A stretch of DNA of 24,000 bases from contig NZ_JAQTIC010000009.1 of the NCBI RefSeq assembly GCF_029433445.1, positions 41,202 through 65,201 on the forward strand. The letters run 5' to 3'. The position numbers were made by a program, and so were the translations under genes. This document shows positions 4,562 to 17,227 of this stretch, piece by piece. Source of the stretch: Lactobacillus sp. ESL0701 (GTDB lineage Bacteria; Bacillota; Bacilli; Lactobacillales; Lactobacillaceae). Every line of letters begins with the position of its first letter. Within the stretch, counting starts at the first letter, position 1. The notes beneath the pieces were generated by a model, which was not told where the DNA came from, ran no database searches, and saw only the letters and a list, made by a program, of their open reading frames with translations.

Positions 4562-5027
4562 TTGTCGGCAAAATGCCTCGCGCGTAATTGATTCTCGTCC
4601 TAGTGATGAAAATCGGGCAATTCGCCGTAGACGTGAATGTGAAAATTGTGGTTTTCGGTTTACAACCTTTGAACGCATGGAAACTACGCCATTGTTAGTC
4701 ATTAAAAATGACGGTACAAGAGAGCCATTTAGCCGCAAAAAGATTTTGCATGGTGTGATGGCTGCTGGGCAAAAGCGTCCAATTACTAGTGCTCAATTTG
4801 AGCAGCTAGTTGACCACGTTGAAAACAAGGTTAGAAAACAAGGCGTCAGCGAAATTTCATCAAAGAAAATCGGTCAAATTGTCATGGACGAATTGGCTGA
4901 TATTGACGATGTTGCTTACATTCGATTTGCCTCCATTTACCGCGAATTTAAAGATATGTCCAGTTTTATGAAGACGATGGAAGATATGATTGCTAAACGT
5001 GAGGAGAAGGGAACTACTGATGTTTGA
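4548..5027 (+). CDS. nrdR: Transcriptional repressor NrdR (zinc ribbon plus ATP-cone)
   Basis: MECPNCRQNASRVIDSRP...RRRRECENCGFRFTTFE is the hallmark NrdR zinc ribbon, followed by an ATP-cone. RBS GGAGAG lies upstream. The gene overlaps the coaE end by 14 nt. Confidence 0.95.
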   Translation: MECPNCRQNASRVIDSRPSDENRAIRRRRECENCGFRFTTFERMETTPLLVIKNDGTREPFSRKKILHGVMAAGQKRPITSAQFEQLVDHVENKVRKQGVSEISSKKIGQIVMDELADIDDVAYIRFASIYREFKDMSSFMKTMEDMIAKREEKGTTDV

Positions 5028-6379: not shown

Positions 6380-7279
6380 ATGCAACAAATAGGCGATATT
6401 TTAAATAAAGTTAATCCTGAAATTAAAGAAAAATATAATTTAAATAAGATTTACCAACAAGTATTAACTGATCCGGATATTCAAAAATTTATTCATGAAA
6501 ATGAAAATAAAATTACTCAGAAAATGATAAACCAGAGTTTGTCAAATTTATATGAATATTATTCACAACGACATAATCAAGATCCTGTTATAACCGGATA
6601 TCGGCCTGAATTGTTTTTGAATCATAATGCAATTGATCTGCGATTTGTACCTGATTCAAATAAATTGATTCGAGATCGTGAAAACAATACTAAACTACAT
6701 TTGAACTTAATCGACTTGCCTGAAAAATTGCGTAAAGTTCATATAAGCGAAATTGATTTGACTAATGAGCGAAAAGGCGTGGTTGACTTAATAATTAAAT
6801 TTTTATCTAAATATAGACGTAATCCTCATCAGAAGGGACTTTATTTAGAGGGAAATTTTGGAGTAGGTAAGACATACATTTTAGCAGGACTTGCTAATCA
6901 TGTAGCTGCTATGAACAAGAATGTTGTCTTTTTACATGTACCAACATTTATTGCAAAGTTATCGAGTCATTTTGAAGATAATAGTTTGCAAAATGAAATT
7001 GATCGTGTGAGTCAGTGTGATTTATTAATTTTAGATGATATTGGTGCAGAAACTTTGAGTCAATGGTCACGTGATGATGTGTTAGGTGTTATTTTACAAG
7101 CGCGTATGGATAATGTTCTGCCAACATTTTTTTCATCTAATATAGATATGGATAAACTTGAAGAACATTTTAAGGTGACTAAAAATGCTGTTGAGCCAGT
7201 TAAGGCAGCTCGTTTAATGGAAAGGATAAGAACTTTAGCCAAAGAAGTAGAAATTAAAGGAAAAAATAGAAGAAGATAA
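6380..7279 (+). CDS. dnaI: Primosomal protein DnaI (helicase loader, AAA+)
   Basis: Walker A GNFGVGKTY and Walker B LLILDDIGAE. The size and the position after dnaB fit DnaI. The gene is noticeably AT-rich compared with dnaB. Confidence 0.88.
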   Translation: MQQIGDILNKVNPEIKEKYNLNKIYQQVLTDPDIQKFIHENENKITQKMINQSLSNLYEYYSQRHNQDPVITGYRPELFLNHNAIDLRFVPDSNKLIRDRENNTKLHLNLIDLPEKLRKVHISEIDLTNERKGVVDLIIKFLSKYRRNPHQKGLYLEGNFGVGKTYILAGLANHVAAMNKNVVFLHVPTFIAKLSSHFEDNSLQNEIDRVSQCDLLILDDIGAETLSQWSRDDVLGVILQARMDNVLPTFFSSNIDMDKLEEHFKVTKNAVEPVKAARLMERIRTLAKEVEIKGKNRRR

Positions 7280-7302
7280 AATATAGTTTCAAAGTATTTT
7301 TA

Positions 7303-7345
7303 ACCTACCAATTGAGAAAAACTTACTTGGTAGGTATTTTTATTG
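7303..7345 (+). terminator. Rho-independent terminator after dnaI
   Basis: acctaccaa (7303-7311) pairs with ttggtaggt (7327-7335). The hairpin is followed by atttttatt. Confidence 0.7.
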
Positions 7346-7402
7346 ATTTTTGTTTTATAATTAAAATTATAGATTTACGTATCAAGTGGAGAAATGATAA
7401 GA

Positions 7403-8974
7403 ATGACAAATAATAGAGAATCTCAAGAGACAGTTCAACGACAGGAATTACATCGAAAAATTTGGGCAATTGCTGATAATGTTCGTGGAGCAGTAGATGG
7501 ATGGGATTTTAAACAGTATGTTCTTGGAATTTTGTTTTATCGCTTTATTTCAGAAAATATGACAGAATTTTTTAATTCAGCTGAGCATGAAGCTGGAGAT
7601 GATGATTTTGATTATACTGAATTATCTGATGAAGAGGCACGAGAGGATTTTGAGCCAGGAACAATTGAAGATAAGGGCTTTTTTATTTTACCTAGTCAAT
7701 TATTTGCTAATGTTTTAAAAGCTTCAAAAAACAATGAGAATCTAAATACTGATTTGGCTAATATTTTCAAAAGTATAGAAAAAAGTGCTGAAGGTCATCC
7801 ATCTGAAGATAATATTAATGGCTTATTTGCTGATATTGATACTACTAGTAATAGATTAGGCGGAACTGTTAAAGAAAAAAATGATCGTTTAAGAAAAATT
7901 CTTCAAGGTATTGCTAATATTCAATTTGATAATTTTCAAGATAATGATATCGATGCTTTTGGTGATGCTTATGAATACTTAATTTCAAATTACGCTAGTA
8001 ATGCTGGAAAATCTGGAGGGGAATTTTTTACACCACAAACTGTATCTAAATTGCTTGCTAGAATAGTTACTGATGGTAAAACTGAAATTAATAAAGTATA
8101 CGATCCAACATGTGGAAGTGGCTCTCTACTACTACAGATGAAAAAACAATTTGATGATCATGTAATTAAAGAGGGGTTTTTTGGTCAAGAAATTAATATG
8201 ACAAATTACAATATGGCACGCATGAATATGTTTTTACATGATGTCAATTATAGTGATTTTTCAATTAAGCGCGGTGATACGCTTTTGCATCCAATGCATG
8301 AAAATGATAAACCATTCGATGCAATTGTTTCTAATCCACCATATTCTCAAAAGTGGCCTGGCAATAATGATCCAACTTTGATTAACGATCCACGTTTTGC
8401 ACCAGCTGGTAAATTAGCACCAAAGAATTATGCTGATTATGCCTTTATCTTACATTGTCTCAGTTATCTTTCTTCACAAGGATTGGCAGCAATAGTTTGT
8501 TTTCCAGGTATTTTTTATCGTAAAGGTGCAGAAAAAACTATTAGACAATACCTGGTTGATAATAACTTTATTGATTGTGTAATTGCTTTACCAGAAAATT
8601 TGTTTTTTGGTACAACAATAGCAACTTGTATTATGGTGCTGTCAAAACATAAGAAAGATAATACAACACTTTTCATTGATGCCAGTAAAGAATTTCAAAA
8701 AGAAACAAACAATAATATTTTAAATAATGATAATATTACTCATATTGTTCAAGAATTTCGTGAACGTAAAGATATTGATTACTTTGCTAAAAATATTAGT
8801 CATGATGAAATTGCTAAAAATGACTACAATATGTCGGTTTCAACTTACGTTGAAAAGGAAGATACACGAGAAAAAATTGATATTGATGTTTTGAATAAGC
8901 AAATTGATCAAACTGTTAAAAAGATTGATCAATTAAGAGCTGATATTAACAAAATAGTTAAGGAATTATTGTAA
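7403..8974 (+). CDS. hsdM: Type I restriction-modification system, N6-adenine DNA methyltransferase subunit HsdM
   Basis: HsdM N-terminal domain ([36 protein letters not shown]). AdoMet motif I is [10 protein letters not shown] and catalytic motif IV is NPPYSQKW. The ATG at 7403 has better spacing to GGAGA (7387-7391) than the ATG at 7394. Either start is possible. Confidence 0.93.
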
Positions 8975-8992
8975 GTAAAGAAGGTGAGGCAA

Positions 8993-10819
8993 ATGTCAAA
9001 GATTGATGAATTGCTAAAAGATGAACATGTTGAATGGAAAAAATTGGGAAGTGTTCTAAATTATGAACAACCAACTAAGTATATTGTTAGTTCTACCAAC
9101 TATGACTCAAGTTATAAAATACCAGTCTTAACTGCAGGTCAAACTTTTATATTAGGATATACAAATGATAAAGACGGAATATATATTGCTTCAAAAGATG
9201 AACCGGTAATTATTTTTGATGACTTTACAACTTCTAGTCATTGGGTTGACTTTGACTTTAAGGTCAAATCGTCTGCAATGAAATTACTTAGACCTAAAAA
9301 TAATGAGATAAATTTGAGATATTGCTATCATTATATAAAAACAATAAGTATAGATATAGCGGAACATAAGCGAATGTGGATTTCCAAATTTTCACAAATA
9401 AAGATACCAGTTCCTTCTCTTGAAGTTCAACAAAAAATAGTAGAAATACTTGACAAATTCACAGATTATGTTACTGAATTACAGTCTGAATTACAGTCTG
9501 AATTACAGTCTAGACAACAACAATATTCTTATTATAGAGACAAATTATTATCTGAGGAATATTTGACTAAACTCTCTGAAAAGCTTGATAAACTAGGGGG
9601 GAAGAAGCAAGAAGTTAATTGGGTTCTTCTTTCTGACGTTGCAAAAATAAAAAATGGAAAAGATTGGAAATCTCTTGGCAAAGGTAAAGTTCCAGTTTAT
9701 GGCAGTGGTGGAAAAATGAATATTTCGGTTAATAAATCTGCATATTCTAAACCAACTGTATTAATTCCACGAAAAGGTTCAATAGATAATGCTTTTTACC
9801 TTGATGAACCTTTTTGGAATGTTGATACTATTTTTTATACTGAAATTGATGAAACTAGAATTATACCAAAGTATTTTTTCTATTTTGTTCAGAGCTTTGA
9901 TGTATCTCGATTGAGTACTAATCCTACTAGACCTAGTTTAACGCAAACAGATTTAAATAAAATACAGATACCAATACCACCTCTATTGATTCAAAATCAG
10001 GTTGTTTCGGTACTAGATAGATTTCAAGATTTGTTGAATAATACAGAAGGATTATTACCAGAAGAAATAGACCAAAGGCAAAAGCAATACGAATATTATC
10101 GTGATCAGCTCTTGACATTTGACTTTAATATGATAAGAACGAACGAACGAACGAACGAACGAACGATAACTAATTACTTCTTTGATATTTTAAATGCTGC
10201 CGCTAAAGCAGTTGGAATAAGACTAACTGGTGGCGTGGAATGGAAAACATTAGGAGAAATCACTGAAAGAGTTTCAACAGTTAAGTTTGAAAATGACACT
10301 AAATCATATTTTTATATTGACTTATCTTCTGTTGATAGACAAAACCATGTAGTAGTAACTGCTTCTTTAGTTAATAGACTAACAGCTCCAAGTAGGGCAA
10401 AACAGTTGATTAAGGAACATGATATTCTATTTGGTGGAACTCGCCCAATGTTAAAAAGATTTGCATATGTTAATAAAAAATTTGATGGTCAGATTGCAAG
10501 TACAGGATATACAGTACTAAGATGTAATAATTCAAATGTTATTTCTAAATTTATTTATTATCAAATTCAAACAAATAAATTCTTTAATTATATTAAAAAT
10601 ATTCAGAAAGGAACAAGTTATCCATCAGTAACAGATAATCAAGTGAAAAAATATAAAGTGCTAATTCCGACATATACAATTCAAGCCGAAATAGTAAAAG
10701 CATTAGATAGATTTAATACTCTAGTTAATAATATATCTGAAGGCTTACCTAAAGAAATTGAATTGAGACAAAAGCAGTATGAATATTATCGGGAACAATT
10801 ATTTGATTTTAAGAAGTAA
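8993..10819 (+). CDS. hsdS: Type I R-M specificity subunit HsdS, atypical 608-aa form with three TRDs and three conserved helices
   Basis: TRD1 is about 9029-9412 (EWKKLG...[14 protein letters not shown]...[11 protein letters not shown]). CR1 is 9413-9553. TRD2 is about 9608-9967. CR2 is 9968-10126 ([26 protein letters not shown]). A linker carrying (GAAC)7 follows. TRD3 is about 10235-10663 (VEWKTLGEI...APSRA...STGYTVLR). CR3 is 10664-10816 ([26 protein letters not shown]). The ATG at 8993 follows AAGGTGAGG. The track's 8984 start is a GTG. Confidence 0.9.
9474..9511 (+). repeat. Perfect 12-bp tandem repeat (ctgaattacagt) x3 plus 2 nt, in frame, inside the hsdS central conserved region
   Basis: Units lie at 9474-9485, 9486-9497 and 9498-9509. 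They encode [13 protein letters not shown], just upstream of the RQQQYSYYR helix. Confidence 0.95.
10137..10166 (+). repeat. Tetranucleotide simple-sequence repeat (GAAC)7 plus GA inside hsdS
   Basis: Seven perfect GAAC units span 10137-10164 and encode [10 protein letters not shown]. The flank gaTAAcTAAtt carries a TAA in each of the two alternative frames. Confidence 0.97.
10167..10819 (+). other. Distal half-hsdS module (TRD3 plus C-terminal-type conserved helix), currently fused in frame to hsdS
   Basis: It has the architecture of a single-TRD HsdS half. No ATG lies between the SSR and TRD3; the first in-frame ATG is at 10448, inside the TRD. The only nearby start is the GTG at 10235, which abuts GGTGG with no spacing. 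Translation therefore appears to depend on read-in from upstream. Confidence 0.6.
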
Positions 10820-10837
10820 TAAATTAAGGGAGATGCA

Positions 10838-11977
10838 ATGAAGGATAAAGAGTTTGCTTCGCTAAATGACGTAGCAAAAGATCTCAAAAAAAGTAATAAG
10901 AAAGTTACATTATTGTATGCGTTTAATGCAACGGGCAAGACAAGACTTTCTATGAAATTTAAAGATCTTGTAAATGAGACTGATGATAGTGGAGAAGAAG
11001 TTAAGCATATTATTTATTTCAATGCATTCACCGAAGATTTATTTTATTGGGATAATGATTTAGAAAATAATTTAGAACGTATTTTAAAAATAAATACTTC
11101 TTCAGCTTTTATTACATTGATTAAAAATCAAGGCATGGAGAATAGAATAGCAGAAAAATTTCGTGAATTTGCTTCCTCAAAGATTGAGCCACAAATAAAT
11201 GTTGAGACTGGTGAAATTACTTTTAGTATTCCAACTGGTGATAATGAAGCGGTTGATAATATTAAAATTTCAAAAGGTGAAGAAAGCATCTTTATTTGGT
11301 CAGTTTTTTATGTTTTGTTAGAAACCATTATTTCTGAATTAAATGAAGATAAAGAAGATCGTAGCACTAATGAATTTAATCAAATTCATTATATTTTTAT
11401 TGATGATCCAATTTCATCTTTAGATGATAATAATGCAATTGATACAGCGATTGACCTAAAAGAATTAATTGTAGGTTCCAGAAATGAAGATTTGCACTTT
11501 ATTATTTCCACCCATCATGCTCTATTTTATAATGTTTTGTTTAATGAACTTAGGCGTGATCGAAATATTAAAGATAATAAAGTTTCTTTCTTTTCTCTGC
11601 AGAAAAAAGAAAATGAAATTGGTTATGTTTTAAATAGTCAAAATGATTCACCTTTTGGTTATCATTTGATTGTAAAAGAAGAAATAGAAAATGCAATTAA
11701 AGAAAACCGAATTAAAAAATATCATTTTTTGTTGTTTAGAAATCTTTTAGAAAAAACTGCTACTTATTTAGGTTACAAAAATTGGAGTGAGCTTATAATT
11801 GGCGATGATATTTCAGAAGATAATAGGAATGGATACGTTCGTAGAATTAACTTATACAGTCATAGTAAACAGGCAGACCTTGAATATAAAGAATTGCGGC
11901 CTGAAGAAAAAAATATGTTAAAACTACTCTTTAATAATTTTATTAAAGAGTTTAAGTGGGAGGTAAAAAATGACTGA
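10838..11977 (+). CDS. prrC: PrrC-like anticodon nuclease (ABC/AAA_13-type NTPase domain plus C-terminal RNase domain)
   Basis: It lies between hsdS and hsdR, the prr-locus position. Walker A is AFNATGKT (aa 28-35), an ABC-signature-like motif is ISKGEES (aa 144-150), Walker B is YIFIDDPISSLDD (aa 185-197) and the H-loop is STHH (aa 224-227). C-terminal R301-x3-E305 (FRNLLEKT) and H342 (NLYSHS) match the spacing of the PrrC Arg-Glu-His triad (R320/E324/H356 in E. coli). Length is 379 aa versus about 396 aa for E. coli PrrC. RBS AGGGAG at 10826-10831. Confidence 0.75.
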   Translation: MKDKEFASLNDVAKDLKKSNKKVTLLYAFNATGKTRLSMKFKDLVNETDDSGEEVKHIIYFNAFTEDLFYWDNDLENNLERILKINTSSAFITLIKNQGMENRIAEKFREFASSKIEPQINVETGEITFSIPTGDNEAVDNIKISKGEESIFIWSVFYVLLETIISELNEDKEDRSTNEFNQIHYIFIDDPISSLDDNNAIDTAIDLKELIVGSRNEDLHFIISTHHALFYNVLFNELRRDRNIKDNKVSFFSLQKKENEIGYVLNSQNDSPFGYHLIVKEEIENAIKENRIKKYHFLLFRNLLEKTATYLGYKNWSELIIGDDISEDNRNGYVRRINLYSHSKQADLEYKELRPEEKNMLKLLFNNFIKEFKWEVKND

Positions 11978-14900
11978 ATCACATTTGAAATATAAAGTGA
12001 AGGTACCAGTTGCAGAATTACCTAACCAAATTATTCTCGCTGAATTTAAACCTAGGGAGCATGTACAAAAGAGTTATCAAACAGAAGCTGAATTAGAAGA
12101 AAATTTGCTTATTAGATTACAAGCTCAAGGCTATGAATTCTTATCTGCAAGTTCTTCTGCGGATTTATATGTTAATTTGAAAAAGCAAATTGAAAAGCTA
12201 AATAAAGTTGAATTTACGTCAAAAGAATGGCAACGCTTTTTGAATGAATATCTTGATAAGCCCAATGACGGAATGATTGAGAAAACACGTAAAGTCCAGA
12301 TTGATAGCGTCAAAGATTTTATTTTTGATGATGGTCATTTGAAAAATATCAAAATAATTGATAAAAAGTGTCTTAGTAACAATTATGTACAAGTAGTTCA
12401 TCAGATTAGCCAAACTGGGACGCATCATAATCGTTATGATGTAACTATTTTAGTTAACGGGCTTCCCTTAGTGCATATTGAGCTAAAAAAGCGTGGCGTC
12501 AACCTTCACGAAGCATTTAATCAAATTCATAGATACAGTAAAGAAAGTTTCAATTCAGATAATTCTTTATATAAATATGTTCAGCTTTTTGTCATTTCTA
12601 ACGGAACATACACAAGATATTTTGCCAATACTACCGCACAGGATAAAAATCATTATGAATTTACATGTGAATGGGCGGATGTTAAAAATCGACCAATTAG
12701 AGATTTAGAAGATTTTACAGCTACTTTTTTTGATAAGACTACTTTATTGGAAATAATTACAAAATATTGCGTTTTTAATTCTGATAACAAACTTTTGGTT
12801 ATGAGACCATATCAAATTGCAGCAACTGAACGAATTTTGTGGAAAATTCGTTCGAGTTATTTATCAGGAAAAGCTGGAACAATTGATGCAGGTGGGTATA
12901 TTTGGCATACTACGGGTTCTGGTAAAACCCTAACTTCTTTTAAAGTTGCTAGGTTGGTTACTCAATTAGATTACATTGCTAAAGTGTTTTTTGTTGTAGA
13001 TAGAAAAGATTTAGACTATCAAACAATGAAAGAATATCAAAGTTTTGAAAAAGACAGCGTTAATGGTAGCAAAAATACTAAAGCATTGAAGCAAAATATT
13101 GAAAAAGAAGATAATAAAATTGTTGTTACGACAATTCAAAAACTAAATGAGTTTGTAAAAAAGAATCCTAATCATGAAATATATCAGAAGCATTGCGTTT
13201 TAATTTATGATGAATGTCATCGTTCACAATTTGGTGAGGCGCAAAAAAATATTAGGAAACATTTTAAATATTATTATCAATTTGGTTTTACAGGAACACC
13301 GATTTTCCCTGAAAATGCTGCTGGTGCAGAAACTACAGGTAGCATTTTTGGAGCACAGTTGCATAGTTATATTATTACTGATGCAATTCGCGATAAAAAA
13401 GTATTAAAATTTATGGTTGACTACAATGATAGTAGGCCAATTTTTAAATCTGCAGAAATTGAACAAGATGAAAATGAGTTAGCTAAAATAAAAACTAAAA
13501 AGTTATTACTGCATCCTGATAGAATTCATGAAATTACTAAATATATTCTCAAAAATTACGATCTCAAAACACACAGAAATGAGCAATATGATATTAAGAG
13601 TAAACGCTTGAATGGTTTTACTGCTATGTTTGCTGTACAGAATATTGAAGCTGCAAGGTTATATTATGAAGAATTTAAAAAGCAGCAAAAGAATATACCT
13701 GAAGATAAGCGATTGAGAATAGCTACTATTTTTAGTTTTGCAGCTAATGGTGAGCAAGATGCAGTTGGTAGTATTGCCGATGAAAATTTTGATCCTAGTA
13801 AACTAAATTATAGTGATAAGGAATTTTTGGATGAAGCGATTAAGGATTACAATAATTTCTTTACTCCTAAAAAAAATTACTCAACTGATGGCAAGTTATT
13901 TCAGAATTATTATCAAGATTTATCCAAGGAAGTAAAAAATAGAGAAATAGATTTGTTGATTGTAGTTGGTATGTTTTTGACTGGATTTGATGCACCAACT
14001 TTGAATACTCTATTTGTTGACAAAAATCTTAGATATCATGGATTAATTCAAGCTTTTTCTAGAACTAACCGGATTTTAAATAAAGTTAAAACTTTTGGTA
14101 ACATTGTTTGTTTTCGTGATTTACAAAAACCAACTGAAGATGCAATTAAGATTTTTGGTGATAGTAATAGTGTTAATGTGATTCTTGAGAGAAGTTATCA
14201 AGATTATTTAAATGGTTTTGTTGAAGAAGAAACTGGGAAAGTTGTTAAAGGATATAAAGACCTATGTAATGAAATGATTGACAAGTTTCCTGAACCAACA
14301 AAAATTGAAACAGATTCTGATAAAAAGGAATTCGTCCAATTGTTTGGGGAAATTTTGAAATCTGATAATATTTTAAAAAATTATGATTCATATCAAGATT
14401 TTGATCAAATTATTTCTGATAGACAATTACAGGATATGAAGAGTACATACGCGGATATTCGCGAAGAGGTTTTGGAAGAGAAGCACAATAAAGCTGCTAG
14501 TGATACATCTTCAAAAATTGATTATTCTGATATTGAATTTCAAGTTGATTTATTGAAGACAGATGAAATTAATCTTGATTACATTTTAAAATTAATTTTT
14601 GAAAAGTCTAAAAAGAACAAAGATATTGGTTCGTTAAAAGTTGAGGTAAAGCGAATTATCCGGTCAAGTCTAGGTATTCGTGCTAAGGAGGATTTGATTT
14701 TGGGTTTTATCAATCATACTGATTTATCCAAATTTGAAAATTCTTCTGAAATTCTTGATTCATTTTATTCTTTTGCTAAAAAACAAAGAAAAGAAAATGT
14801 ACAAAAACTGATACAAGATGAACATTTAAAGGAAGGTGCGAATAACTTTATTGGAGATTCCATTGACAAGGGTTATGTTAATTATAATGGCTCTGAACTT

Positions 14901-15008
14901 GATAATATTTTACCTCCAGTTTCACGTAGACATGGTGCTCGTGAAGCAAAAAAACAGAGTATTTTAAGGAAAATACAAAAAATAGTAGAGGTCTTTTCAG
15001 AAACATAA
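11970..15008 (+). CDS. hsdR: Type I restriction enzyme, endonuclease/translocase subunit HsdR
   Basis: The PD-(D/E)xK nuclease core is YDVTILVNGLPLVHIELKK. SF2 helicase motifs are I (HTTGSGKT), II (YDECHRSQ), III (GFTGTP) and VI (QAFSRTNR). At 1012 aa it is in the size range of EcoR124I-type HsdR. The ATG at 11970 follows GGGAGG and overlaps the prrC end by 8 nt. Confidence 0.93.
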   Translation: MTESHLKYKVKVPVAELPNQIILAEFKPREHVQKSYQTEAELEENLLIRLQAQGYEFLSASSSADLYVNLKKQIEKLNKVEFTSKEWQRFLNEYLDKPNDGMIEKTRKVQIDSVKDFIFDDGHLKNIKIIDKKCLSNNYVQVVHQISQTGTHHNRYDVTILVNGLPLVHIELKKRGVNLHEAFNQIHRYSKESFNSDNSLYKYVQLFVISNGTYTRYFANTTAQDKNHYEFTCEWADVKNRPIRDLEDFTATFFDKTTLLEIITKYCVFNSDNKLLVMRPYQIAATERILWKIRSSYLSGKAGTIDAGGYIWHTTGSGKTLTSFKVARLVTQLDYIAKVFFVVDRKDLDYQTMKEYQSFEKDSVNGSKNTKALKQNIEKEDNKIVVTTIQKLNEFVKKNPNHEIYQKHCVLIYDECHRSQFGEAQKNIRKHFKYYYQFGFTGTPIFPENAAGAETTGSIFGAQLHSYIITDAIRDKKVLKFMVDYNDSRPIFKSAEIEQDENELAKIKTKKLLLHPDRIHEITKYILKNYDLKTHRNEQYDIKSKRLNGFTAMFAVQNIEAARLYYEEFKKQQKNIPEDKRLRIATIFSFAANGEQDAVGSIADENFDPSKLNYSDKEFLDEAIKDYNNFFTPKKNYSTDGKLFQNYYQDLSKEVKNREIDLLIVVGMFLTGFDAPTLNTLFVDKNLRYHGLIQAFSRTNRILNKVKTFGNIVCFRDLQKPTEDAIKIFGDSNSVNVILERSYQDYLNGFVEEETGKVVKGYKDLCNEMIDKFPEPTKIETDSDKKEFVQLFGEILKSDNILKNYDSYQDFDQIISDRQLQDMKSTYADIREEVLEEKHNKAASDTSSKIDYSDIEFQVDLLKTDEINLDYILKLIFEKSKKNKDIGSLKVEVKRIIRSSLGIRAKEDLILGFINHTDLSKFENSSEILDSFYSFAKKQRKENVQKLIQDEHLKEGANNFIGDSIDKGYVNYNGSELDNILPPVSRRHGAREAKKQSILRKIQKIVEVFSET

Positions 15009-15032
15009 TATAAGTTTTCTATTAAAAAGTTC

Positions 15033-15060
15033 TTGCATTTAAATGTCGTTTGCGTATAAT
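15033..15060 (+). promoter_or_regulatory. Sigma-A promoter of the thrS leader
   Basis: -35 TTGCAT (15033-15038), a 16-nt spacer, then -10 TATAAT (15055-15060). Confidence 0.7.
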
Positions 15061-15066
15061 TAAGTG

Positions 15067-15279
15067 CAACGAATGAACATGATGTTACTCAACTCAGAGA
15101 GAAGGACGTTTTTCTGGAAGTCTTTCATGAGCAAGACCCCACTCATTCTACTAATAAAGGTTTTAACAAAGGCTGGATTCCATTATCAATCTTAAGAGAG
15201 GGTTAGAGGTACTCTAATCTATTTGGGTGGAACCGCGTTAATATACGTCCCAGTGCTTAATTGCACTGGGGCTTTTTTT
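15067..15279 (+). promoter_or_regulatory. T-box riboswitch leader (threonine-specific) with intrinsic terminator
   Basis: Stem I helices are GAATGA (15071-15076) with TCATTC (15143-15148), and CATGA (15078-15082) with TCATG (15125-15129). They enclose an internal loop containing ACC (15136-15138). An AGAGAG box lies at 15096-15101 and a distal TGGAA at 15115-15119. The T-box sequence atttGGGTGGAACCGCG lies at 15221-15237. The terminator is cccagtgc/gcactggg (15249-15270) plus T7. Confidence 0.85.
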
Positions 15280-15295
15280 GTTTATGGAGGTAAAC

Positions 15296-17227
15296 ATGAG
15301 TTTTTCAATTACTTTGCCTGATGGGTCAAAACGTGACTATGACCAAGCTATTTCAATTGCCGATTTGGCACATGATATTTCGACCTCACTTGGTAAGGCT
15401 GCCTTGGCTGGAAAAGTTAACGGCGAATTAAAGCCAGTTGATTACGAATTAAATGATGATGCAGAAGTAGCAATCATTACTGATAAAGATGAAGACGGTT
15501 TGAACGTTTTACGTGCAACTGTTGCCTTTGTTTTTGAAGCAGTAGCTAAGAAGGCTTATCCAGAATTGCGGTTGGGTGAACACGCTGCTGATCGTGATGG
15601 CTTTTTCGTTGATACTGATAAAGAAAACCAAATCAAAATTGGTGAATTGCCACAATTAGAAAAGGCTATCCAAAAGGCAGTCAAGAGTGGTGCCAAGATT
15701 GAACAAGTAGAGATGTCCAAGAGCGAATTAGAAAACATTTTTAAAGATGACAAGTTCAAGCTTGAATTGTTAAAGGCTGAAGGCGACACCGTTGAAGCAT
15801 ATAAGTTAGGTGACTTCGTTGACTTAGGTTTTAGTGCACTTTTGCCAAATACCGGTAAAATTAAGCAATTTAAGTTGCTCAGTGTTGCTGGTGCTTATTG
15901 GCAAGGTCAATCTTCTAATCCAATGCTGCAACGGATTTCTGGAACTGCCTTTTTCAAGAAGGCTGATCTTGATGCTGATATTAAGCGTCGCGAAGAAATT
16001 AAGGAACGCGATCACCGGACAATCGGTCGTGACCTTGACTTATTCTTCGTTGACCCGAAGGTTGGTGCAGGTCTTCCTTACTGGATGCCAAAGGGTGCCA
16101 CTATTCGCCGCGTGATTGAACGCTACATCATTGATAAAGAAGTTGCTCGTGGTTACCAACACGTTTACACACCAGTATTGATGAACTTGGATGCTTATAA
16201 GACTTCTGGTCACTGGGCACACTACCGTGATGACATGTTCCCACCAATGGACATGGGTGATGGTGAAATGCTTGAATTAAGACCAATGAATTGTCCATCA
16301 CATATTCAAATTTACAAGCACCATATTCGTTCATACCGTGAATTACCAGTACGGATTGCCGAACTGGGGATGATGCACAGATATGAAAAGTCAGGTGCTT
16401 TGTCAGGTTTGCAACGAGTTCGGGAAATGACTTTGAATGATGGTCACACCTTCGTTACTTTGGACCAAGTCAAAGATGAATTTGCGAGAACTTTGCAATT
16501 AATCATGGATGTTTACAAGGACTTTGACATTACTGACTACTACTTCCGTTTGTCATACCGTGATCCAAAGAATACTGAAAAGTACTTTGCTAATGATGAC
16601 ATGTGGGAAAGAAGTCAATCAATGCTTAAAGGTGCTATGGATGACATGGGTCTTGACTATGTTGAAGCAGAAGGCGAAGCAGCATTCTATGGTCCTAAGC
16701 TTGATATTCAAACTAAGACAGCTTTGGGCAGCGATGAAACCATGTCGACCATTCAACTTGACTTCATGTTGCCAGAACAATTTGATTTAACTTACATTGG
16801 TCAAGATGGCGAAGAACATCGTCCAGTTATGATTCACCGCGGAATTGTTGGTACGATGGAACGGTTCATTGCTTATCTAATTGAAATTTACAAGGGTGCT
16901 TTCCCAACTTGGCTGGCTCCAGTTCAAGTAGAAATTATCCCAGTTAACCTTGATGCTCATGGCGATTATGCTAAGAAGGTTCGCGACGAATTAAATAAGC
17001 GTGGTTTCAGAGCAGAAGTTGATTTCAGAAATGAAAAATTAGGTTACAAGATTCGTGAAGCTCAAACCCAAAAAGTTCCTTACACGCTTGTTTTGGGTGA
17101 TAAGGAAATGGCAGATAATGGTGTCAACGTTCGTCCTTACGGTACTGACAAAGAAATTGCTAAGAGCTTAGACGAATTCATTAAAGAAATTGAGGCTGAT
17201 GTTAAGTCATATTCACGCGAAAAATAA
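15296..17227 (+). CDS. thrS: Threonine--tRNA ligase
   Basis: The ATG at 15296 follows GGAGG (15286-15290). The protein has a TGS domain N-terminus, class II core motifs ([30 protein letters not shown]) and a C-terminal anticodon-binding domain. The track start at 15278 lies inside the terminator T-run. Confidence 0.95.

Follow-up and report, generated by a model that had tools for sequence, protein, structure and literature searches.

The hsdS gene in a 24-kb stretch of the genome of Lactobacillus sp. ESL0701 (24,000 nt of contig NZ_JAQTIC010000009.1, hereafter the window) raises the question of how a type I specificity subunit with three target recognition domains (TRDs) could work, since the M2S1 complex into which such subunits assemble is built for two. 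As the original prediction for this locus had stated, a single open reading frame (ORF) of about 608 codons reads TRD1-CR1-TRD2-CR2-linker-TRD3-CR3 (CR, conserved region), and this architecture was borne out by ORF calling, Pfam matches, the homology of each TRD and the secondary structure of an AlphaFold2 (AF2) model. The same prediction had treated the three-TRD fusion as a fixed oddity, having overlooked that CR2 and TRD3 are joined by a (GAAC)n tract, which makes sense of the arrangement. We consider it likely that this is an hsdS of the extended, phase-variable kind, belonging to a type IC hsdM-hsdS-prrC-hsdR system, and that the three-TRD ORF is one of the phases of a frameshift switch.

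The (GAAC)7.5 tract lies where an ordinary two-TRD hsdS would end. Apart from this tract and a 12-nt repeat in CR1, the window has no perfect tandem array, and in dinucleotide-preserving shuffles the chance expectation for (GAAC)5 was 0.00 matches. We rebuilt hsdS in silico with 3 to 12 GAAC units and read the lengths of the products. With 4, 7 or 10 units, the three-TRD fusion of 604-612 amino acids was obtained; with 3, 5, 6, 8, 9, 11 or 12 units, translation stopped 3-7 nt past the tract, after CR2, and the product had 386-398 amino acids. This short product, TRD1-CR1-TRD2-CR2, has the canonical HsdS layout. The frameshifting simple sequence repeat (SSR) occurs after CR2 only, and none was found between TRD1 and TRD2. 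Because the length of the tract decides between read-through and a TAA stop, the three-TRD ORF is best regarded as one phase of a switch. In the mechanism that we propose, slipped-strand mispairing at replication would add or remove 4-nt GAAC units in ESL0701. Two of the three frame classes would then meet a TAA 3 or 7 nt past the tract and end as a TRD1-CR1-TRD2-CR2 HsdS of about 390 amino acids, and the third class, which includes the present seven units, would be read through a flexible tether and a short helix into TRD3-CR3 to give 608 amino acids. Residues 379-387, within the repeat-encoded stretch, had a predicted local distance difference test score (pLDDT) below 50 in the AF2 model.

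The same design was found in many related genes. Many relatives with full coverage, 560-635 amino acids long, came up in a protein search; the best was just 56% identical, and dozens were from Streptococcus suis. The search also gave shorter alleles of about 375-403 amino acids that cover the first two TRDs. In most of the long relatives, the CR2/TRD3 junction is a repeat-encoded peptide (RTNE, THAR, TH, STVQY, RQTD, SQSV, DSIRF, RE or NNKQQTT), whose copy number varies between otherwise near-identical proteins (one or two copies of RTNE; one, two or three of THAR; two, three or five of TH; one, two or three of STVQY). At the DNA level, we compared 11 loci: the window, a metagenome contig, and loci from Veillonella parvula, a Filifactoraceae metagenome-assembled genome (MAG), Granulicatella, Peptoniphilus obesi, Peptococcus simiae (two loci) and S. 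suis (three loci). Seven different repeat units (GAAC, AGAC, AC, GCAC, AAGC, AGCA and ACAGT) occupy the same junction over these loci. In all 11, there is exactly one frame that runs on for 602-674 nt, as far as the stop of CR3; the remaining two end within 5-19 nt.

The split state was observed in 7 of the 11 loci. A distal module separated by a frameshift had originally been put forward as grounds for giving up the three-TRD interpretation; such a separation does exist, but it is better understood as the other phase of the switch. In all seven split loci, the distal frame is intact (204-245 amino acids), and no start codon or ribosome-binding site of the distal module is conserved among them. 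That these modules are intact yet lack a conserved start argues that they are maintained by selection and could be expressed only by read-through, so that reversible switching fits them better than decay. The three S. suis strains, in which the flanks of the tract are identical, illustrate both states: (ACAGT)4 in L032 gives a product of 395 amino acids, (ACAGT)6 in L031 a fusion of 594 amino acids and (ACAGT)8 in L033 a product of 403 amino acids. Both P. simiae loci, with (AGCA)13 in L021 and (AGCA)19 in L022, are split. A different arrangement was noted in Parvimonas parva (L003), where a G12 homopolymer (4664-4675) lies in the middle of a 402-amino-acid hsdS frame and is followed by a separate 275-amino-acid frame; this gene may be phase-variable with its tract at another position.

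The domain anatomy of the ESL0701 subunit could be read in some detail (Table 1). The ORF spans either 8984 (GTG, 611 amino acids) or 8993 (ATG, 608 amino acids) to 10819 on the plus strand. The ATG is the likelier start, because GGTGAGG is found just upstream of it and the GTG falls inside that Shine-Dalgarno-like motif. From there, a single frame encodes TRD1-CR1-TRD2-CR2-SSR-helix-TRD3-CR3. The Pfam family Methylase_S (PF01420) matched three stretches of the protein (E = 2.2e-45), the number anticipated by the original prediction, for which two would have counted as contrary evidence. The subunit resembles EcoR124 HsdS (7bst_A; E = 2.3e-75), and its residues 1-187 match TRD1 and CR1 of EcoR124I/II HsdS in the same structure (E = 3.6e-56). 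For residues 410-573, the match was to TRD1 of Thermoanaerobacter tengcongensis HsdS (5ybb_D/3okg; E = 2e-22), and the TRD3 model superposed on 3okg and 5ybb_D with a root mean square deviation (rmsd) of 2.5-2.7 A over about 170 columns in Foldseek. TRD2 is of the type that forms the largest TRD cluster among homologs.

Each of the three conserved regions covers 30 residues from LD.F to YYR, as read from the translation. CR3 matches the C-terminal CR of EcoR124 (E = 8.3e-18), and CR2 and CR3 are indeed both of the C-terminal type, their DNA forming a 94-nt direct repeat that is 70% identical. On the other hand, the segment VEWKTLGEI, earlier taken for a TRD1-like start of the distal module, is a generic type IC TRD start, and TRD2 of EcoR124 begins likewise. 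The helix before TRD3 carries the motif [IL][IV]SxxY[FY]xxLxEAAxxVG, which is kept across homologs. As a TRD1-like or TRD2-like marker this helix was rejected, because it resembles the segment after CR1 (LLSEEYL, compare LISSEYL in relative P0075) and the N-terminal leader alike.

Table 1. Features of the hsd operon and of the extended hsdS gene in the window
Feature	Position	Strand	Basis or remark
hsdM, type I methyltransferase subunit, 526 aa	7394..8974	+	Pfam N6_Mtase (E = 3.5e-116) and HsdM_N; NCBIfam TIGR00497 (E = 1.3e-211)
Extended hsdS ORF, 608 aa, read-through phase	8993..10819	+	ORF call, Pfam, frame test
TRD1 (residues 13-142)	9029..9418	+	61% identical to EcoR124I/II TRD1; bounds from AF2 secondary structure
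CR1, central conserved region	9419..9586	+	AF2 helices 143-185 (long, continuous) and 188-198; invariant CR residues in alignment
12-nt in-frame repeat (CTGAATTACAGT)x3.2, encoding (SELQ)3 in CR1	9474-9511	+	Tandem Repeats Finder (TRF), 100% matches
TRD2, NGKDWK...PVYGSGG type (residues 206-330)	9608..9982	+	Best Pfam Methylase_S stretch, 211-359
CR2, C-terminal-type conserved region	9983..10120	+	AF2 helix-loop-helix 331-349, 356-375
Perfect tetranucleotide repeat (GAAC)7.5, encoding the linker	10137-10166	+	TRF score 60, 100% matches
Out-of-frame stops TAA, TAA	10167-10169, 10171-10173	+	Read from the sequence GA-TAA-C-TAA after the tract
Amphipathic helix before TRD3 (residues 392-412)	10166..10228	+	AF2 helix 394-407
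TRD3 (residues 413-560)	10229..10672	+	Homologous to T. tengcongensis HsdS TRD1
CR3, second C-terminal-type conserved region	10673..10816	+	AF2 helix-loop-helix 561-579, 585-603
prrC-like gene, anticodon-nuclease family ATPase, 379 aa	10838..11977	+	PADLOC PrrC (E = 2.4e-126); Pfam AAA_13
hsdR, type IC restriction subunit, 1012 aa	11970..15008	+	Pfam HSDR_N, SWI2_SNF2, T1R_D3-like, EcoR124_C; TIGR00348
Terminator-like hairpin closing the operon	15247..15272	+	10 pairs, 7 GC, then T-run

When 333 TRDs were clustered, 26 types emerged. At least 13 of these occur at position 3; some of them are found at position 1 as well, among them the TRD1 type of the window, and some at position 2. Such diversity indicates selection for DNA recognition, and position 3 fits a DNA-reading slot under diversifying selection. 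A set of S. oralis/mitis proteins and a few other long proteins have no junction repeat. In S. oralis GCA_026782085.1 (L154, 6045-6164), the junction keeps a decayed (GAGTA)~2.6 remnant, gagtagagtagag, and the three-TRD hsdS, a locked fusion, adjoins intact hsdM and hsdR. Since such a fusion persists beside intact partner genes, a three-TRD HsdS can be stable and is then presumably functional. Abi_2 and AbiH genes were also observed around hsdM at this S. oralis locus, which has no prrC.

Extended genes of this kind have been described before. Atack et al. (FASEB J 2019/2020; PMC7383803, section 3.4) reported "extended phase-variable hsdS genes" for Mannheimia haemolytica and for Fusobacterium nucleatum. 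In M. haemolytica, the tract is G[n], G12 giving TRD1+2a+2b and G10 or G11 giving TRD1+2a, and in F. nucleatum it is AAGAC[n] (PMC7383803). The M. haemolytica motifs given there are CAACN4GT for the two-TRD and CAACN5TC for the three-TRD form, and the authors remarked that replacement of TRD2a by TRD2b "would require substantial experimental confirmation" (PMC7383803). Compared by architecture, as described, the Lactobacillus gene is alike in having TRD1, TRD2a, SSR and TRD2b in one ORF, in an SSR unit not divisible by three between the second and third TRDs, and in giving a full two-TRD HsdS out of frame and a three-TRD HsdS in frame. It differs in its host, a Gram-positive Lactobacillus, in its GAAC unit and in its PrrC-containing type IC operon. 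It is thus a further member of a known, little-studied kind of extended phase-variable hsdS. The earlier suggestion was that CR3 might compete with CR2 for CR1, so that one polypeptide would offer two bipartite specificities. An alternative specificity through the additional TRD-CR agrees with the findings reported for this architecture in M. haemolytica (PMC7383803), but the alternative would be set mainly by repeat-length frameshifting, that is, by the choice between a two-TRD and a three-TRD product.

Several observations speak against a phase-variable gene of this kind in ESL0701. An independent Logan assembly of SRR22533727 is identical to the genome, with n = 7, and thus the locus, represented by one genome, shows no variation in tract length. 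A metagenome scan with the flanks of the tract and a variable gap gave 0 matches, and seven units make a modest tract. The AF2 monomer of 608 amino acids, built from a 59-sequence alignment, had a pLDDT of 84.8 and a predicted template modelling score (pTM) of 0.50, and showed no canonical HsdS arrangement, with an rmsd of about 30 A to whole HsdS structures. A second monomer covering residues 200-608 (TRD2 to CR3) had a pTM of 0.56 and a whole-HsdS rmsd of about 25 A, and whole-HsdS superpositions by Foldseek gave 24-33 A, with no TRD pair canonical. Finally, the Mannheimia motifs are taken from REBASE entries and are no proof of which TRD reads the common half-site. A contig search with the HsdM of the window returned just the identical SRR22533727 contig, and none of 120 metagenome contigs with (GAAC)6 or longer encodes an HsdS relative in tblastn. 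It should be noted that these contigs are mostly from seawater or other environmental assemblies, where long GAAC microsatellites are common for unrelated reasons.

The small and so far invariant tract could mean that the fusion is frozen, that is, that the tract, for want of length or through its stability, does not switch at a useful rate, the 608-amino-acid product is constitutive and the repeat is a relic. Genome and independent assembly agree on n = 7, only seven units are present, and locked fusions do exist in other lineages. However, the tract is perfect and uninterrupted, whereas relics decay, S. oralis being an example, and both out-of-frame TAA codons have been retained directly downstream of it. 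Moreover, tracts of merely 3 tetranucleotide units have been reported to vary at about 1e-6 (PMC7383803). A frozen fusion is, in our judgement, improbable.

The structural models could be taken to favor an ON/OFF switch, in which the three-TRD fusion cannot assemble into M2S1 and read-through turns restriction-modification (R-M) off. The complex is made for two TRDs, AF2 gave no confident arrangement of the three modules, and the fusion arises in just one of three frame classes. For such a switch, however, a frameshift alone would suffice, whereas a TRD-CR module of about 220 amino acids is intact in all seven split loci and carries at least 13 TRD types. In addition, the locked three-TRD genes of S. 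oralis persist beside intact hsdM and hsdR, and strains of M. haemolytica that carry the extended form show a distinct methylated motif (PMC7383803). The idea of an inactive OFF form, raised in the original prediction, is therefore disfavored, and we give it little credence.

It had also been claimed that the distal module has neither an ATG nor a ribosome-binding site of its own. An in-frame ATG does exist at 10130, 7 nt before the GAAC tract, and the claim holds in that no Shine-Dalgarno sequence accompanies it. Single-TRD half-subunits are able to dimerise, as in the NgoAV and EcoDXXI truncations, and a distal module translated alone, for example from this ATG, might do likewise and add a palindromic specificity beside the two-TRD enzyme. 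Apart from the missing Shine-Dalgarno sequence, no start codon or ribosome-binding site was conserved in any related locus, and the ATG lies in the upstream hsdS frame, so that its product would be made only in the phase that also makes the fusion. An independent half-HsdS is thus very improbable.

The 94-nt repeat shared by CR2 and CR3 could also point to a silent cassette, in which an unexpressed TRD3-CR3 is exchanged for TRD2-CR2 by recombination between CR2 and CR3, in the manner of shufflons or inverting systems. Yet this repeat is only 70% identical and is direct rather than inverted. Long inverted repeats are absent (the best being 34 nt at 71%), no recombinase gene was found in the window, and TRD3-CR3 is in frame and translated in the present state. 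We consider this explanation the least credible of all.

How, then, could three TRDs be accommodated in the phase-variable subunit? In the AF2 model of the full-length protein, the domains are confident and their mutual arrangement is not, and the pairing of the conserved regions is not shown by the model. By analogy with M. haemolytica, the three-TRD protein would assemble with HsdM and confer another bipartite specificity. Most likely, TRD3-CR3 sits against CR1 in place of TRD2-CR2, which would be looped out on the tether. This arrangement is favored because CR3 copies CR2 in type and length, because the repeat stretch, predicted to be disordered, could tether a looped-out TRD2-CR2, and because it agrees with the published Mannheimia assignment. 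Alternatively, TRD3-CR3 might displace TRD1-CR1, an exchange of simple topology. CR2 would then act as the central CR and form a CR2:CR3 coiled coil in a re-pairing that resembles a circular permutation. In the canonical HsdS fold, CR2 has its C-terminus beside the TRD1 site, and the 388-position specificity profile of PADLOC aligns end-to-end with residues 206-608; both facts would suit a displaced TRD1. If this were true, the switch would leave the TRD2 half-site unchanged. The Mannheimia motifs could be compatible with it, since either TRD could read the common half-site.

Another possibility concerns the downstream genes. Because about 650 nt before prrC, in the stretch 10170-10837, would go untranslated in the two-TRD phase, and because prrC and hsdR share an 8-nt overlap that couples them, polarity could lower the levels of PrrC and HsdR in that phase while the specificity changes; this idea is pure inference. 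Taken jointly, displacement of TRD1 and, as a second possibility, such phase-linked polarity seem to us rather unlikely, and replacement of TRD2-CR2 remains the preferred arrangement.

Specificity might also vary in the same gene through the repeat in CR1. (SELQ)3 sits where EcoR124 has its LTAELTAEL repeats, and the protein is 4 residues longer there than 7bst_A. In EcoR124I/II, a difference of one TAEL repeat decides whether the spacer is N6 or N7. Two S. suis alleles, P0046 and P0025, differ by one unit at the CR1 repeat position. By analogy, the CR1 repeat would be a second, non-frameshifting way of varying specificity.

The extended hsdS lies in an R-M operon. The gene order hsdM-hsdS-prrC-hsdR, with prrC between hsdS and hsdR, is the classic prr-type order. 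On the basis of the EcoR124_C domain in HsdR (E = 3.2e-53, Pfam) and the EcoR124I/II match of the N-terminal part of HsdS, the system is classified as type IC. The start of hsdR overlaps the end of prrC by the 8 nt mentioned above (11970-11977). No terminator was found at the CR2/TRD3 junction, and promoter-like matches, examined operon-wide for an internal promoter at the junction, were no commoner than in shuffles, which argues for a single operon. A TTGACA at 10113 was considered as a promoter element and rejected, as it corresponds to conserved LLTF codons. The prrC-like gene is labelled merely 'AAA family ATPase' by NCBI. The DnaI, PrrC-like and HsdR proteins of the window are identical to NCBI records of ESL0701, and its HsdM belongs to the 90%-identity cluster that includes the HsdM record of this strain, which has 523 amino acids. 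The exact 608-amino-acid HsdS is missing from a collection of 15 billion proteins, in which its neighbours appear as MDF7673083 and then MDF7673085; given this accession gap, the NCBI record of hsdS may carry another start or a different flag.

The R-M/PrrC island (window positions about 7300-15300) has a GC content of about 0.29, compared with about 0.40 in its flanks, and for this reason was probably acquired horizontally. Its borders are dnaI (6380-7279) on one side and thrS (15278-17227) on the other, and the flanks hold polA, fpg, coaE, nrdR, dnaB, dnaI, thrS, an amino-acid ABC transporter, infC, rplT and a yqeH-like gene. No recombinase, integrase or transposase was detected among the ORFs of the window, and no flanking repeats were found around the island.

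PrrC was also found beside extended hsdS genes elsewhere, in V. parvula (L001, 5853-6980; E = 1.1e-125) and in S. suis (L031, 6800-7903; E = 3e-137). At all three S. suis loci (L031-L033, 3852-4859), a RhuM-family gene (PF13310) was observed between hsdM and the extended hsdS.

Comparison with other known systems helps to place the gene. EcoR124I/EcoR124II HsdS shares with it the TRD1 that is 61% identical, the CR motifs, a 4-residue repeat in the central CR and an HsdR of the EcoR124_C kind, whereas the EcoR124 subunit, with its two TRDs, terminates after CR2 and has neither a 3' repeat tract nor a third module. The prr locus of E. coli (EcoprrI-PrrC) is alike in the order hsdM-hsdS-prrC-hsdR, in being type IC and in the strong PrrC match; to our knowledge, its hsdS encodes two TRDs and lacks a repeat tract. 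In NgoAV of N. gonorrhoeae, a frameshift that depends on poly-G length switches hsdS between two active specificity subunits rather than on and off (PMC7383803). Repeat-length frameshifting in hsdS is common to both, but the NgoAV tract lies between TRD1 and TRD2 and separates a one-TRD, dimerising half-subunit from a two-TRD subunit, whereas here it lies after CR2 and the alternatives are two and three TRDs. The inverting systems (SpnD39III/ivr of S. pneumoniae, SsuCC20p of S. suis and hsd of Mycoplasma pulmonis) resemble it in a stochastic change of type I specificity with spare TRDs, but they depend on elements that are absent here, namely inverted repeats, silent hsdS' genes and a site-specific recombinase.

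Three-TRD HsdS was described in 2019 for two species, both Gram-negative, and has seemingly had little follow-up in the literature searched, no later paper on the three-TRD mechanism having been found in full-text searches. Neither Lactobacillus nor S. suis is named in the main text of PMC7383803, and the S. suis paper by the Atack group contains no description of the ACAGT hsdS locus. Our data extend this picture in that the design is widespread in Bacillota, namely in Lactobacillus, S. suis, the S. oralis/mitis group, Granulicatella, Peptoniphilus, Peptococcus, a Filifactoraceae MAG and Veillonella, and they add the many repeat units at one junction, the locked-fused variants and the linkage of extended hsdS to PrrC in Lactobacillus, S. 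suis and Veillonella. TRD1 of EcoR124I reads GAA, and the EcoR124-like TRD1, predicted to read a GAA-type half-site, makes the Lactobacillus locus a convenient methylome test case for which TRD is displaced. For genome annotation, these results mean that hsdS genes which such a tract divides should not be labelled as pseudogenes or orphan fragments.

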